From Thermodesulfobacteriota bacterium (GTDB taxonomy: Bacteria; Desulfobacterota; Desulfarculia; JACQYL01), in contig CAXXLZ010000002.1 in NCBI GenBank assembly GCA_963675595.2, forward strand, positions 3,648,001-3,712,000: a DNA stretch of 64,000 nucleotides. The letters are read 5' to 3'. The translations under genes and the position numbers were made by a program. This document shows positions 49,224 to 53,635 of the stretch, one piece after another; the first letter of the stretch is position 1; each line of letters begins with the position of its first letter. The notes below the pieces were generated by a model that was not told where the DNA came from, did not search any database, and was given only the letters and a program-made list of their open reading frames with translations.

Positions 49224-50693
49224 ATGCCGAGAGCTGAAAACTCTCCGGGTCTTTCAAGCCCCGGGAAAGACGAGACCGCCGGCAGGACGAAATGGATTGT
49301 ATTTTCACTGGTGGCCGTTGCGGTGTTCATGTCGACGCTCGACACCAGCATTGTCAACATTGCCCTGCCGGTGATCATGAAGGATCTAAAGGCGCCGCTG
49401 ACCACCATTCAGTGGATTCCCATGATCTATCTCTTGAGCGTGTCGTCTCTTCTGCTCCCTCTAGGGCGGCTCAGCGATATCCAGGGAAGACGCCGGGTTT
49501 ATTGCGCGGGATTTTTGCTTTTTTCATTGGCATCCCTTTGGTGCGGCGTGGCGCCCAGCGCCGTTTGGCTGATTGCCGCCCGATCGCTGCAGGGCGCTTC
49601 GGCCGCCATGCTCATGGCCTGCTCCCCCGCCATTCTCGTGGATACCTTCCCCCCCGCCGAGAGGGGCAAAGCACTGGGGGCGCTGGGAGCGGTCGTCGCC
49701 TCAGGCCTCATCGCCGGGCCGGTCATCGGCGGCCTGATTATTCAGTCGCTGCCGTGGCGGGTCATCTTTTTTGTCAACGTGCCCATCGGCATTGTGTCCA
49801 CCATACTCGCCCTTCGAATTCTTGAGGATGCGGAAGCAACCATTGACGGCAAACAGGGCTTTGACTGGAAGGGAACATTTTTTCTGGTGGTTGGACTCAG
49901 TTTGTTTATCTACGTCATTTCCAACGCTTATTCCTGGAATCCGACATCTCCGCGCACCATTGCGGGGTTATCCGTTTCAATCCTGGTCATGGTGTGGTTT
50001 CTTCGTGTTGAAAAGCGCACGGATTCTCCCATATTTCAAACGTCACTGCTGAGAATTCGTCTTTTTCTTTTTCCGCTCCTCGCCGCATTCATACTGTACG
50101 TCAGCCTGTTCACCATGATTTTTCTCATGCCCTTCTATCTGGTTTATCCCTGCGGTTTATCCATTGAAAAAGCCGGATACACCATGGTGATCCCTTTTGC
50201 CTTTCTTTCTCTAACAAGCCCTCTTTCCGGGTACGTCTCGGACCGGACGGGGTCCCGCACGCTTTGCACCCTCGGAATGCTGGTGATGTCGGCGGCGCTG
50301 TTCTACCTGTCCCGGATTACGCCCGAACACGGATACCTTTCCGTGGCCTGGCCCCTGGCTTTGGTGGGAATCGGAACCGGTATTTTCGTTTCACCCAACA
50401 GCTCAACCCTGATGAGCGCCGTGCCGCAAACCCACAGGGGGGAAGCATCCGGTATGTTCGCGGCCGCGCGAAATCTGGGAATGGCCATCGGCGTGGCTCT
50501 GTCGGGTCTCATCTTCAACAGCATCTTTCATTCGCAGAGCGGAGGCCTGGCGTTAAAGGAATACAGACCGGACCTCGAGACGGTTTTCCTGGCCGCTTTT
50601 CGGTGGGCTATGCTCGCGGGGGGATTCGTGGCCTGCATCGGTGTCGTCGTATCCTTCCTGCGCGGCGGTGAAGCGGCACGAAATAAGGGGTAA
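49224..50693 (+). CDS. MFS transporter, DHA2 (EmrB/QacA) family
   Basis: FMSTLDTSIVNIALP, LGRLSDIQGRR, WRVIFFVNVPIG. Confidence 0.92.
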   Translation: MPRAENSPGLSSPGKDETAGRTKWIVFSLVAVAVFMSTLDTSIVNIALPVIMKDLKAPLTTIQWIPMIYLLSVSSLLLPLGRLSDIQGRRRVYCAGFLLFSLASLWCGVAPSAVWLIAARSLQGASAAMLMACSPAILVDTFPPAERGKALGALGAVVASGLIAGPVIGGLIIQSLPWRVIFFVNVPIGIVSTILALRILEDAEATIDGKQGFDWKGTFFLVVGLSLFIYVISNAYSWNPTSPRTIAGLSVSILVMVWFLRVEKRTDSPIFQTSLLRIRLFLFPLLAAFILYVSLFTMIFLMPFYLVYPCGLSIEKAGYTMVIPFAFLSLTSPLSGYVSDRTGSRTLCTLGMLVMSAALFYLSRITPEHGYLSVAWPLALVGIGTGIFVSPNSSTLMSAVPQTHRGEASGMFAAARNLGMAIGVALSGLIFNSIFHSQSGGLALKEYRPDLETVFLAAFRWAMLAGGFVACIGVVVSFLRGGEAARNKG

Positions 50694-50769
50694 GGTAAGT
50701 ATTCACGGGGGAGGGGATTTTTTTATTTATTTATCGGGGGAAACTTTCGAGAAAGTTTCCTATGTGGCC

Positions 50770-50990
50770 TCAAGTCAAGCCGGAATTGGATAACCGTTTC
50801 CTATTCGCGCCCGAAGCGCCAAGTACACATGCGATGTAGAAGCGAAGATGCCGCCATTTCCCCAGCGCTACCGATGCAGCCAAACTTTATCGCGGCCGTC
50901 TCCGCTTTTTTCTCCCGGCTTGAGGCTCGGGACCCACCTCAAGTATGGGTCCCGAGCCGGTTGGGTTCTCCTAAACAAGTCCTAACCGGC
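50770..50990 (-). ncRNA. Predicted bridge/seek RNA of the IS1111-type element
   Basis: Nested stems (TCAAGCCGG/CCGGCTTGA; GCGGAGA-GCCGC/GCGGC-TCTTCGC) enclose internal loops whose strands match the target (AAAGUUU, GGGGAAA) and donor (GUACUU, AUAGGAAA). Confidence 0.7.
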
Positions 50991-52079
50991 TCATGCTTGG
51001 TCCGCTTGGAGACGAAATTCATAGGTCCGTTTTTCCATGGTCAATCGCCATAGAACAACGGCCAGTTTCCGTGCCAACGCACAAATGGCCTTTTGTGGAA
51101 GGCCCGTTCGCGACAGGAGTTTTCGATAATGCGAATCAATGGCCGGATCCCTGGACTTCCACGTCCAGGCCGCCTCCACCAACAGACTCCGCAGTCGCGT
51201 CTGACCCACGGGAGGAAGCGCCACTCGAGATTTCCGCTCTCCGCTTTGTCTTACCAACGGTGCGAGTCCCAGATAGCTGGTCACTTCCTCCACCCGATGG
51301 AACCGACTCGGGCGAAACAATTCCAGGAGGAAGGTAGCCGCTGTGATGGGACCCACCCCGGGGACGCTTCGAAGGCATCGCATTTCCTCAAAGTGTTCAG
51401 GTTTCTCGCACACACTGGAAGTCCTTTCCTCCATGAAGGCTTTTTCCTTTGTGAGGAAATTCAACTCACGGAGCAAGCTGAGCAGCGTCGCTTTGGCCTC
51501 CTTCGGCAGACGAAGCTTTCGAAGTTGCGCCACAGCGCTTCGGCCCCAATGATTGAGCCCGGGAGGCGCCTCCACACCGTGAAACAGCAGAAGGGATTGA
51601 ATTCTCTGCTTAACGCGTCGAGTGCCGTCGGCCAGATCGTGCCGACGGCGAATTACGCTGCGTTCGGCCTCCTCTTCCTCCGTGGGAACGGCGATGGACT
51701 TCAATATCCCTCGGGCGGCATGGTCCGCCAACCGCATGCAATCCAGGCGGTCGGTCTTGGCCCCCGCAGTCACCGGCCTAGGGACCCGACTCGGCGCCAC
51801 CACGATCACGCTGAACCCGGCTTTGGCCAAAGTGCGCGCAAGGCCGAAGCCGGTGGGCCCCGCTTCGTAGGCTACGGCTCGGATGCGCCTCAAGTGGGGG
51901 AGCAACATGGCCACGATGGCCTCCGGAGAGGCCGAGGACACAAAAGTCTTCACCTCGCCGTCGCTGCGAAGCACGGCCACGTGGTAGCTCTTTTTGTGTA
52001 CGTCGATCCCGACGTGGAAATCACGGTCGATATCCAGCTCCAAAAACTTGGCCAATTCTGTTACTTTCGTTGCTACCAT
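50991..52079 (-). CDS. IS110-family DEDD transposase/recombinase
   Basis: GIDVHK, YEAGPTG, KTDRLD, and C-terminal SYLGLAP..RQSG (catalytic Ser); AAGGAG RBS. Confidence 0.95.
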   Translation of the reverse strand: MVATKVTELAKFLELDIDRDFHVGIDVHKKSYHVAVLRSDGEVKTFVSSASPEAIVAMLLPHLRRIRAVAYEAGPTGFGLARTLAKAGFSVIVVAPSRVPRPVTAGAKTDRLDCMRLADHAARGILKSIAVPTEEEEAERSVIRRRHDLADGTRRVKQRIQSLLLFHGVEAPPGLNHWGRSAVAQLRKLRLPKEAKATLLSLLRELNFLTKEKAFMEERTSSVCEKPEHFEEMRCLRSVPGVGPITAATFLLELFRPSRFHRVEEVTSYLGLAPLVRQSGERKSRVALPPVGQTRLRSLLVEAAWTWKSRDPAIDSHYRKLLSRTGLPQKAICALARKLAVVLWRLTMEKRTYEFRLQADQA

Positions 52080-52144
52080 GTTGGTCTCCTTTCTGTTTGG
52101 GTGATGCTCCATCATAACGATCGAGCACCTGAGGCCAACATGGT

Positions 52145-52280
52145 ATTTCCCCCGGTCCCCTTTCAAAGCGTTTTAAGAGTGCCTCACCGCCTTCGGCGGA
52201 GAGGCTTCGCTGATTTCCCCCGGTCCCCTTTCAAAGCGTTTTAAGAGTGCCTCACCGCCTTCGGCGGAGAGGCTTCGCTG
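52145..52280. repeat. Perfect 68-bp tandem duplication at the IS junction
   Basis: ATTTCCCCCGGTCCCC...GAGGCTTCGCTG at 52145 and 52213, followed by a third ATTTCC at 52281. Confidence 0.9.
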
Positions 52281-52417
52281 ATTTCCAGCGTCCTTTGATT
52301 TGCTGAATCGGCAAAAACGAGCGGCATGTGCCGTCCAACCTATTAAAACACCTGAAGGTTTTCAAAAAGGGCTCCCTCGGATACCTTTCTGAATGGTCAC
52401 AGGGTAAGCGGTGCCGC

Positions 52418-53635
52418 TTACGGCGTTTTCAAGCCTTCCTCGATGTTTCGGCAGGCCTGGACGAACAGGTCGTTTTCTTCTTCCGAGCAAATGGTCATAC
52501 GGAGAAAATGGTGACCCTGCAATCCATTGACCCGATTGAGGTTGGCCGTGAGAAACCCCTGTTCCGTCAGCGCCTGCCAGAGTTCATCCGCTTTCAGGTG
52601 CGCGTTTTTCAGCATGAGCGTGTTCGTCCGGGAGGGTAGGAAAGAGAACGTCTTCAAGGTTTCCAACTGCCGGTACAAACGTTTCCGGCGGATCACCAGC
52701 TTTTTCCTGGCGCTCTGCACGTGCTCCTCATCAACGGAAGCGATTCCGGCCAGAAAAAGAGAGAACCACGAAAAGGGAAACATGGGCCGGTACAGGGAAA
52801 CGGCCTGCAAAATAGTTTCGCTTGAGCTGATGAGGTACCCGACGCGCAGGTTCGGCAGGGCATGGATTTTGGAAAAAGTCCGCAAGACCATCAAATTCTT
52901 GTATTGTCCCGCAAACCGACTTGCCGACACTATTTCCCGGTCCGTATCCGTGTATTCGCCGTAGGCCTCATCGATCACAACGGCGGTATTCTGCGAAGCG
53001 CATAGGGCCGTCAGGTCTTTCATCCACTCAAGGGAAAGATCCTGGCCCGTTGGATTCACCGGGTTGCTGACCCACAGCAGCTTCGGGCGATGGGCTTGGA
53101 TGAGGTTTCCAAGGCGTTCCACGGTGGCGTCCGTCCACTGAAAGTCGTCCTCAGGCGCAAGGGGTAGATAAACGGGAGTTCCGCCCACGCGAATGGAAAA
53201 ATCGGCGAACACGCTGAAATTGGGAATGGGAACCAAAAAGGCCTCACCGTTTTGCAGAAATACCCGGCTGATGTGATCGATCATGGACTCCAGGCCCGCG
53301 CTCAAGACAAACCGGTCGGGATCCAGTCCGTGCAAATCCGCCAGGCGCCGGCGCAGCAGGCGGTAATGGTTGTCCGGATACTCCACCAGATTCTGCCTGC
53401 ACAGCCCGGCCAGGTCGGCCTCTTCCAAGACCCCGTCGACGAGGTCCGAATAGCCGTCGGAATTCTTCCCGATATCGAACCGGTAGACCTTCTCCAGGTT
53501 ATGGTCCCGTTTGAGCCGGTCGATGAGCTCCTGTTCATCCGTATCCTTGCTGATGTAGTCCTCGGTTTCCGCGCTCAGGGCCACGCGGGTGAGGCAGCTG
53601 ATGATGTCGCGGGTCGTCAAGGGAATCCTCTTCAA
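52418..53635 (-). CDS. PLP aminotransferase class I/II (HisC/CobD-like)
   Basis: EYPD, SNPVNPTG, IDEAY, RTFSKIHALPNLRVGY; TTG start. Confidence 0.88.
   Translation of the reverse strand: MKRIPLTTRDIISCLTRVALSAETEDYISKDTDEQELIDRLKRDHNLEKVYRFDIGKNSDGYSDLVDGVLEEADLAGLCRQNLVEYPDNHYRLLRRRLADLHGLDPDRFVLSAGLESMIDHISRVFLQNGEAFLVPIPNFSVFADFSIRVGGTPVYLPLAPEDDFQWTDATVERLGNLIQAHRPKLLWVSNPVNPTGQDLSLEWMKDLTALCASQNTAVVIDEAYGEYTDTDREIVSASRFAGQYKNLMVLRTFSKIHALPNLRVGYLISSSETILQAVSLYRPMFPFSWFSLFLAGIASVDEEHVQSARKKLVIRRKRLYRQLETLKTFSFLPSRTNTLMLKNAHLKADELWQALTEQGFLTANLNRVNGLQGHHFLRMTICSEEENDLFVQACRNIEEGLKTP

Follow-up and report, generated by a model that had tools for sequence, protein, structure and literature searches.

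A probable IS1111-group insertion sequence of a Thermodesulfobacteriota bacterium and its putative guide RNA, which matches a palindromic repeat of the host

The systems closest to the element discussed here are insertion sequences of the IS110 family, in which the IS1111 group is separated from the IS110 group by sub-terminal repeats and a long non-coding stretch downstream of the gene for the transposase, according to the parts of PMC11187229 and PMC11208160 that deal with the grouping. As PMC11187229 describes in its account of the IS1111 seekRNAs, the segment complementary to the top strand of the target lies 5' of the segment complementary to the bottom strand, and retargeting among natural relatives is known for ISEc11 and ISXne4. 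For members of the IS110/IS1111 family a promoter is formed by the joined ends of the circular element (PMC11187229, PMC12288879), and host palindromic repeats are known as targets of IS621, ISPa11, ISPpu9 and ISPpu10 (PMC11208160, PMC12288879); these statements, and the comparisons made below, draw on the portions of the three papers that concern these points. Here we analyse a 64,000-nt stretch of the genome of a Thermodesulfobacteriota bacterium (the window), to the whole of which all coordinates without a contig label refer, and in it the region 50756-52150, which carries its transposase gene and its putative guide RNA on the minus strand. With high confidence, we take this region to be an insertion sequence that is active, belongs to the IS110 family and IS1111 group, and has a DEDD transposase gene followed by a guide (seek/bridge) RNA.

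The insertion sequence has a length of 1390 bp when one copy of the core is included, and both of its junctions carry TTTCC, at 50756-50760 and at 52146-52150. Deletion of 50761-52150 restores GGGGGAAACTTTCGAGAAAG-TTTCC-CCCGGTCCCC, and unoccupied versions of the restored repeat occur at other places of the genome, e.g. at G000:C2:40324. This is what an original prediction, made from the letters of the window, had claimed of the excision, and the coordinates that it gave, including those of the TTTCC junctions, the guides and the hairpins, are all correct. Comparison of the relatives shows that the GG of ..CATAGG is the element's own and that the target shares the A-run only. Since only the A-run is common to the element and the target, the strand exchange is placed within AAA/TTT, and the 5-nt TTTCC 'duplication' arises in part because the target happens to carry CC too.

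In the transposase, Pfam recognises the domains DEDD_Tnp_IS110 (PF01548, E 1.3e-15, residues 23-165) and Transposase_20 (PF02371, E 4.1e-22, residues 234-319), the C-terminal part being similar to the solved transposases of ISCro4 (E 4.8e-11) and IS621 (E 3.9e-10). The motifs GIDVHK, AYEAGPTG and KTDRLD, which we take to hold the catalytic D-E-D-D, are present, and the C-terminal motif GL-P----S(T)G appears as GLAPLVRQSG. The non-coding DNA amounts to 230 nt downstream of the gene (50761-50990) versus 66 nt upstream (52080-52145), and the sub-terminal repeat can be extended by eye to ATGT(T)GGCCTCA(A/G)GT with one indel. The DEDD and PF02371 domains, the motif, the inverted repeats (of about 7-17 bp in the group), the downstream non-coding region and the site-specific insertion in a fixed orientation are all features by which the IS1111 group is recognised. 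Because the closest protein, from one short contig, is 79% identical and the next ones do not exceed 63%, the element is a new member of the seekRNA/bridge RNA elements. By its sequence it would perhaps represent a new subfamily, and it may already be catalogued or named; the named relatives are generic 'IS110 family transposase' entries of 55-57% identity, which show no close sequence relationship to named elements. The originally claimed new recombinase/RNA pair is new in the sense of a new member, the closest transposase outside the lineage being about 55-63% identical, and not in the sense of a new kind, as the mechanism is the published one (PMC11187229, PMC11208160).

By a blastn search of the genome (6.79 Mb, 3 contigs), eight full-length copies are found, with six matching over 1390/1390, one over 1388/1388 and one at 99.2% identity, so that seven are at 100%. 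Read in the orientation of the window, the left flank of all eight is ..[A/G]A[A/G]G(T)TTTCC and the right flank is CC.., and the exact 11-mer AAAGTTTCCCC is present in five of the eight rebuilt sites. Hence the insertion of other copies at unrelated sites, which had been named as the outcome that would speak against the original prediction, is not what the genome holds. Recognisable palindromes hold six of the copies, while c1 adjoins a partial repeat module. Seven copies, c1 among them, are intergenic, which agrees with the predicted use of the repeat as a 'safe harbour'; the eighth does not, since c7 (G000:C2:2980057-2981447; L027 1267-2657), the copy with 99.2% identity, splits a long frame with Listeria-Bacteroides repeat (Flg_new) and fn3 domains. 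Beside the full-length copies, blastn also gives a 546-bp relative of 81% identity and a lone 73-bp piece of the left end of the element, 97% identical, which lies at a non-cognate site (G000:C2:3813470-3813542).

It might be supposed that the copies are recently duplicated DNA and that the element is no longer mobile, as c2 and c5 (the window copy) have 60 nt of left flank that are 96.7% identical, together with a repeat-derived right flank. The flank shared by c2 and c5 is, however, the host repeat itself, and the similarity among the flanks of the eight copies ends with this repeat; beyond it the flanks are unrelated, and therefore the eight copies are separate insertions. Moreover, the seven identical copies with intact reading frames indicate recent movement. 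It is also noted that a variant of about 99% identity (10-11 differences, none of them in the guides) is present in contigs of three other organisms, and that contigs of other runs end at the element ends, 50751/52153. One contig of run X3, ending at 52153, continues into the flank of G000:C2:328996 (27/30 by eye), where the cognate site is empty in the present genome; at the level of contigs, this seems to be a polymorphic insertion in a related strain at the orthologous cognate site. In the four runs compared, no contig cleanly spans the orthologous empty site, and one X7 contig, in which 50743 is joined to 52275 with 9 other letters in between, suggests a different intergenic arrangement and not a clean empty site. 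With the identical copies and the related-strain copy taken together, an immobile, merely duplicated element is scarcely credible, and we retain the reading of an active one.

The repeat into which the element is inserted is abundant. With an unoccupied copy as the query, blastn gives 177 matches; the palindrome is contained in 120 of them, a second hairpin module in 112 and a third one in 53. The palindrome occurs as subtypes whose arms compensate each other, namely ..GGAGGACTTTCGGGAAAGTCCTCC.. (the commonest), ..GAAGACTTTCGAGAAAGTCTTC.., ..GGGAACTTTTGAAAAAGTTCCC.. and the minority ..GGAAACTTTCGAGAAAGTTTCC.., and the short forms of the subtypes read ..AAAGTTTCCCCC, ..AAAGTCCTCCCCC, ..AAAGTCTTCCCCC and ..AAAGTTCCCCCC. 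Among at least 120 palindrome copies, only the minority subtype ..AAAGTTTCCCCC and one variant are occupied, and the element thus tells similar hairpins apart by sequence. As both halves of the palindrome carry the site, either insertion orientation is possible. The 11-mer has 19 further occurrences versus 2.7 expected from the base composition, which are distributed over 11 unoccupied palindromes, 3 free halves of occupied palindromes, 3 joints between spacer and repeat of a CRISPR-like array and 2 places elsewhere.

As short, multi-copy imperfect palindromes, the repeats resemble repeated extragenic palindromes (REP) and bacterial interspersed mosaic elements (BIME), with the extragenic location checked for the eight occupied sites only; the family may be REP/BIME-like, a miniature inverted-repeat transposable element or an RNA. 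In Rfam there are 0 matches at E up to 1 within 50000-53000, one tRNA only in the whole window at the gathering score, and for an intact repeat copy three sub-threshold chance matches and no family. At E up to 0.001 the repeat is found in 8 of 41 genomes, this one included, but high numbers are reached in only two of them, the present one (38 scored matches) and one of the same family (24); in the latter no transposase copy is found at E up to 1e-30. The repeat is thus shared at the family level and is not unique to the strain, and the word 'lineage-specific' in the original prediction is approximate: it fits the abundance here and in the same-family genome and the weak matches elsewhere, and it does not fit a palindrome of the same style that flanks a relative of the element in a metagenome-assembled genome (MAG) of the Desulfovibrionaceae.

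Three further observations concern the repeat and its surroundings. First, the window contains at least eight more of its modular copies, e.g. at 13494, 14988, 16873, 27772, 32157, 45259, 53655 and 58795, in a family of more than 100 copies that is built of a CATTCAC motif, the G-rich palindrome, the second hairpin CCTCACCGCC-TTCG-GGCGGAGAGG and the third module. Second, the repeats of the CRISPR-like array at G000:C2:4378307-4381544 start with GTTTCCCCCGCACACGCGGGGATAGGCC, and a spacer ending in AAA creates the exact 11-mer, at three places in the array, all of them unoccupied. Third, a perfect 68-bp tandem duplication of the host-repeat module (2.1 copies, 100% match, 52145-52286) begins exactly at the element junction and has three ATTTCC boundaries. 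The duplication could be due to slippage or to an unequal exchange involving the 6-nt repeat; alternatively, a recombinase may have acted between the junction core and a site 68 bp off that resembles the core. Its origin from a recombination between two copies was considered and dropped, as the segment would then be expected to flank the element on either side, contrary to what is observed.

We now turn to the RNA. In the minimum-energy fold, AAAGUUU and GGGGAAA are opposite each other in one internal loop that is capped by a hairpin and closed by GGCCGC/GCGGC, with the sides ..GAUAAAGUUUG (5') and GCUGGGGAAAU (3'), and the helices are kept in the relatives, in agreement with the arrangement originally predicted. 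They are followed downstream by a small hairpin, GUACUU, the GCGC-UUCGG-GCGC hairpin and GAAUAGGAAA, in this order. The extended 5' guide GAUAAAGUUU (50891-50882) matches the target at 9/10 positions at the window copy, and a repeat search independently found the complementarity of target and guide (50748-50758 versus 50882-50892, 11 nt, 91%). The match complementary to the top strand is located 5' of that complementary to the bottom strand, which is the order of the IS1111 seekRNAs. Two target segments of opposite strands that overlap at the insertion point, an internal loop and a conserved scaffold, by which a seekRNA or bridge RNA is recognised, are all found here. The whole 230-nt non-coding end is better folded than its shuffles (z = -4.97, 0/200 as good), and Rfam has no family for it.

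Around this central part, some elements of the fold are less firmly placed. At the position of the small hairpin the relatives have GUACC-GAAY-CGGUAC. The possible closing stem changes from G-C to A-U in L030 and has a different complementary pair in L001 (both by eye), and in the predicted structure it would set the donor segments in a multi-branch loop. By RNAalifold the outer stem and the closing stem are not recovered as conserved, and both stand on single-sequence folds and changes seen by eye. The perfect 13-bp hairpin between the stop codon of the transposase and the guide RNA is largely conserved in L030 and is not seen in more distant relatives; a role in RNA processing or stability would be a guess.

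The evidence from the relatives was drawn from three sets: a protein search of species-representative genomes (15 loci, 36-55% identity), 41 related genomes, and the covariance model R1 applied to 95 genomes of the same class, with matches in 8 of them including this one. For the three core helices, having 14 pairs, 95.9% of the cells are paired in seven sequences, with compensatory change in 5 pairs; in 16 sequences 92.5% are paired, compensatory change is seen in 10 of the 14 pairs, and none of 500 shuffles reaches the covariation score. The 16-sequence alignment was fitted to the model, and slid controls drop to 15-56% paired. From an unfitted MAFFT alignment of the seven relatives, RNAalifold predicts the same 14 pairs.

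The guides change together with the flanks. With the junctions anchored on the conserved element ends and small register shifts allowed, 12 elements were compared in each test. The 5' guide matches its own right-end flank at 9, 8, 7, 9, 8, 6, 5, 8, 6, 7, 8 and 9 of 9 positions (mean 7.5), versus a mean of 4.6 of 9 for the flanks of the other elements; the 3' guide matches its own left-end flank at a mean of 7.5 of 9, versus 5.0 for the others. High values off the diagonal belong to elements that share a target, i.e. the window element, L030/L037 and the element of the Desulfovibrionaceae MAG with AAACTTT in common, and L036, L038 and L039 with TTAAAAAAA in common. By eye, CUAGAGCUU of L023 fits AAGCTCTAG at 9/9 and L009 fits at 11/11, while in L041 GAGCGCGAU fits ATCCCGCTC at 8/9 and the 3' guide CCAAAAAAU fits the left-end flank at 9/9. 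A matrix of the longest exact matches of the guides with flanks of 295-600 nt had a background of 5-8 nt and was too noisy, and the junction-anchored test was used in its place. Together with the cognate or near-cognate sites of all eight copies, this covariation bears out the central original claim of an IS1111-type element with readable 3' guides aimed at a host palindrome.

Some of the relatives deserve a description of their own. Four of them, L018/L038 (G007), L017/L036 and L023/L045 (both G015) and L039 (G083), are located in an A-run (..TTAAAAAAA-GC..) between OrfA and OrfB of IS3-family elements, the frames flanking L018 being HTH_Tnp_1 and rve; their 3' guides read UAAAAAAA and are aimed at the frameshift window of the other insertion sequence. 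IS4321/IS5075 and the attC-targeting members of the IS1111 group are directed to sequences that are conserved in other mobile elements. They are comparable to these A-run relatives and not to the window element, and their targets are terminal repeats or attC, not a frameshift window. In the Desulfovibrionaceae MAG, a relative of 50% identity with seven loci (L001-L004, L011, L013 and L014) is inserted at ..yTyC-AAAA-CTTT.., and its site adjoins palindromes of the same style (GGGGGAAACTTTTT..AAAAGTTTCCCCC), which places it in the module next to them, within a similar repeat of a distant lineage. The relative L030/L037 (G000:C1:339451-339997) is 5'-truncated, its 3' 546 bp being 81% identical at the nucleotide level and its left end and flank being lost. 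It retains AAAGUUU and the matching right flank CTTTAGG, and its different 3' guide (CUGCAAA) predicts a different left half-site.

A number of observations weigh against a guide-RNA element of the kind described and have to be considered. Three of the eight copies (c1, c6 and c7) are at near-cognate sites: that of c1 (..AGTTTTTCC-CC) has TTTCCCC only and a poor left half, that of c7 (..AAAGGTTTCC-CC) has an additional G, and c6 (G000:C2:3243951-3245340) lies in a variant palindrome (GGGACAACCTTTTGAAAAGGTT..) with the right-junction core TTTTC and not TTTCC, which may be the trace of a mismatch between the donor and target cores. About 16 exact 11-mer sites are unoccupied, and therefore the sequence match alone does not predict occupancy. 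The transposase has 362 amino acids versus the 330-350 given as typical of IS1111 in the description of PMC11187229. The 136-nt core of the RNA is no better folded than its shuffles (z = -0.89, 35/200). When the non-coding end was shuffled 5000 times with its dinucleotides preserved, matches of at least 7 nt to both strands of the 29-nt target appeared in 549 shuffles, and the two fell within 40 nt of each other in 162, so that the single-sequence match is only modestly unlikely by chance; the chance matches are inflated because the target is of low complexity and palindromic. As this single-sequence test is weak, the claim is strong only via the genomic copies and the relatives, among which the lowest own-flank scores are those of L040 (5 and 6 of 9) and L039 (6 of 9 for the 5' guide).

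The weak shuffle test, the many empty exact sites and the palindromic nature of the target could be accounted for if the transposase reads the hairpin or cruciform of the palindrome, with the matches in the non-coding end being coincidence or remnants of captured targets. If this were true, it would be difficult to see why c1 and c7, which are outside palindromes, keep TTTCCCC, why relatives are inserted in non-palindromic sites such as the OrfA/OrfB A-run of the IS3 family with their guides changed to suit, and why the guides keep to constant positions within a scaffold whose helices covary. Targeting by the structure of the palindrome is thus highly improbable, and the reading of the target by the RNA is preferred.

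On the donor side the situation is less uniform. It had originally been predicted that a second loop matches the circle junction with two segments. One of them, AUAGGAAA, is equal to the right end plus the core in 11/11 TACC-type sequences, and in distant relatives the RNA segment changes with the right end, as seen by eye: AAUAACAGA occurs with CATAAC-AGAG (L010), AAUGGCAGCC with CATAGC-AGCC (L006) and AAUGACAGG with CATAAC-AGGG (L008). Based on these sequences, AUAGGAAA is likely the right-donor guide. The other segment, GUACUU, fares less well and adds to the points against the RNA as proposed: it matches at 5 of 6 positions here and, as GGUACUU, at 6 of 7 positions in relatives, always with C where the left end calls for U, and in the relatives GUACUU is predicted to be base-paired as the 3' arm of GUACC-GAAY-CGGUAC. 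The close relatives all have the same left end and thus offer no covariation for this segment, and in the distant AATATG-type relatives no convincing match of a left-donor segment is found by eye. GUACUU is therefore at best a weak candidate for the left-donor guide, and of the predicted second loop it is the right-donor segment that stands.

These observations bear on a different possibility, in which the RNA reads the target only, the transposase recognises the ends via the sub-terminal repeats and the second loop holds no donor guide. This would be consistent with the description of the IS1111 seekRNAs in PMC11187229, in the relevant part of which target matches only are reported and a short form of 82 nt suffices, and also with the length of the sub-terminal repeats, with the conserved mismatch of GUACUU and its place in a hairpin arm, and with the absent left-donor match in the AATATG-type relatives. 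By contrast, it does not explain why AUAGGAAA is equal to the right end plus the core throughout the TACC-type sequences, nor why AAUAACAGA, AAUGGCAGCC and AAUGACAGG follow the right ends of L010, L006 and L008. An RNA restricted to the target is thus unlikely but has to be kept in mind, and an RNA that also reads at least the right end is favoured.

A joint reading of these results, which we consider doubtful and put forward only tentatively, is that one conserved scaffold underlies a natural 'reprogramming series' formed by the subfamily, together with a left-donor hairpin that acts as a switch or mimic. In its reprogramming part, at least five target classes would be read by swapping two loop segments only, these being the host palindrome subtype, the module adjacent to it in a like repeat of another lineage at the phylum level, the frameshift window in the A-run of the IS3 family and at least two unrelated sites, with the core nucleotides paired by the 5' guide ranging from 1 to 3. 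In its left-donor part, GUACC-GAAY-CGGUAC would copy both strands of the left end and could regulate donor engagement, unlike the internal loop of IS621.

By analogy with the published mechanism of the family, from which we infer the circle, the transcription and processing of the RNA, the protein binding and the base pairing during recombination, the following pathway can be proposed. The element would leave as a circle with the junction ..CACATAGG-AAA-TACCATG.., and the joined ends would form a promoter, which in the sequence reads TTGACT, 17 nt including one core copy, and TACCAT, driving the transposase gene and the downstream RNA. The RNA would then be processed and bound by the transposase. 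AAAGUUU would pair with the top strand of the core and the right flank, and GGGGAAA with the bottom strand of the left flank and the core, defining the site GGGG-GGAAA-CTTT (AAAG-TTTCC-CCCC on the plus strand of the window), while AUAGGAAA would pair with the right end of the element and the core, and GUACUU perhaps with the left end. Strand exchange would then take place within the shared AAA/TTT core. Besides the junction promoter, a resident promoter-like site is present in the left end (52138-52111). As judged from the sequence, a hairpin between the left end and the ribosome-binding site (RBS) would block the translation of read-through transcripts and spare those from the junction promoter. 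This pairing is apparently kept with changed letters in L001, L005 and L017 (by eye). The coordinates of the features are collected in Table 1.

Table 1. Positions of the element, its putative RNA and the adjoining host repeat in the window.
Feature	Position	Strand	Basis or remark
Interrupted host palindrome, left portion GGGGGAAACTTTCGAGAAAG-TTTCC	50735..50760	.	
Left core copy (window orientation), TTT/AAA	50756..50758	.	CC at 50759-50760 completes TTTCC
Insertion sequence body, 1387 bp	50759..52145	-	genome blastn copies
Sub-terminal inverted repeat, right-end arm	50765..50775	.	partner 52127-52137
TTGACT, -35-like, right end	50773..50778	-	CTTGAC conserved in 7/7 aligned relatives
Possible closing stem, 3' strand CCGGCUUG	50776..50783	-	pairs with CAAGCCGG 50922-50915; single-sequence fold
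Right-donor guide (likely) AUAGGAAA	50797..50804	-	= right end ..ATAGG + core AAA
Hairpin GCGC-UUCGG-GCGC between donor-side segments	50807..50819	-	fold, covariation, RNAalifold; relatives GUGC/GCAC, GCAU/AUGC
Candidate left-donor guide GUACUU	50821..50826	-	5/6 versus left end + core; weak
Small hairpin UACAU-CGC-AUGUG between arms	50826..50838	-	A-U to G-C in truncated L030 (by eye)
Target-binding arm	50840..50907	-	folds; compensatory changes preserve the inner stem and the hairpin, both also predicted by RNAalifold
Outer stem of target arm	50907-50899 with 50848-50840	-	single-sequence fold
Inner stem GGCCGC/GCGGC	50896-50892 with 50854-50850	-	fold and compensatory changes
5' target guide AAAGUUU	50888-50882	-	complementary to top strand (element orientation) of core + right flank
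Capping hairpin GCUGC-AUCG-GUAGC	50880-50867	-	fold, covariation, RNAalifold
3' target guide GGGGAAA (+ U 50856)	50863-50857	-	same sense as left flank + core; pairs bottom strand
Perfect 13-bp hairpin, 9-nt loop	50924..50958	-	
Transposase gene, 362 amino acids + stop	50991..52079	-	DEDD_Tnp_IS110 N-terminal, Transposase_20 C-terminal, GLAPLVRQSG
Left-end arm 52145-52131 versus RBS + start codon 52088-52074	52074..52145	-	15 nt, 93% complementary
Sub-terminal inverted repeat, left-end arm (element orientation)	52127..52137	.	11 nt, 91% complementary to 50765-50775
TACCAT, -10-like, left end	52140..52145	-	TACCATGTTGG conserved in relatives
Right core copy TTT	52146..52148	.	CC 52149-52150 = target's
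Remaining host repeat TTTCC-CCCGGTCCCC.. + second hairpin module	52146..52213	.	

The mechanism was described in 2024, and an RNA located on the 3' side and the targeting of host repeats have likewise been published; the element is thus a clear new example of a described mechanism and not a new mechanism, and it opens no new question. What it offers is a multi-copy and evidently active example with a fully readable target code and with relatives that are naturally retargeted on the same scaffold, in which a guide match of 11 nt singles out one minority subtype among more than 100 similar palindromes and mostly spares the genes.

Among the IS1111 elements treated in PMC11187229 (ISEc11, ISPa11, ISKpn4 and ISPst6), as they are described in the parts of that paper used here, the DEDD transposase with GL-P----S/TG, the sub-terminal repeats and the long downstream non-coding region are the same as in the window element, and so is the natural retargeting among relatives by changes of the segments only. 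The target sequence and the size of the transposase are different, and the production and binding of the RNA are predicted here from the DNA sequence. With ISPpu9 and ISPpu10 of Pseudomonas putida, the element has in common that several copies occupy one and the same position within a repeated extragenic palindrome with some tolerance of mismatches, according to the account in PMC12288879; ISPpu9 differs in belonging to the IS110 group, in having no inverted repeats, in recombining at an AG dinucleotide and in forming circles without a new promoter, in so far as that account covers it.

With IS621, which we compared from the relevant portions of PMC11208160 and also via the solved structure 8wt6 and related entries, the likeness lies in a two-part RNA logic, by which two segments around a hairpin, overlapping at the core, read both strands of a DNA partner (in the window element the target, and on the donor side probably the right end), and in a circle-junction promoter, predicted here, natural targets of the REP type and a related C-terminal domain. 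In IS621, a member of the IS110 group, the left end holds the RNA, upstream of the gene, the core is a CT of 2 nt and the sub-terminal repeats are short, as described there. The window element, by contrast, has a downstream RNA, an A-run core of about 3 nt, a reversed guide order and only a candidate for the left-donor guide, and the donor segments are apparently in a multi-branch rather than a simple internal loop, as is noted for many IS1111 orthologues in the corresponding part of PMC11208160. The element can therefore be used as a comparative case for the guide order, the core length and the donor recognition in the IS1111-type versus the IS621-type RNAs.

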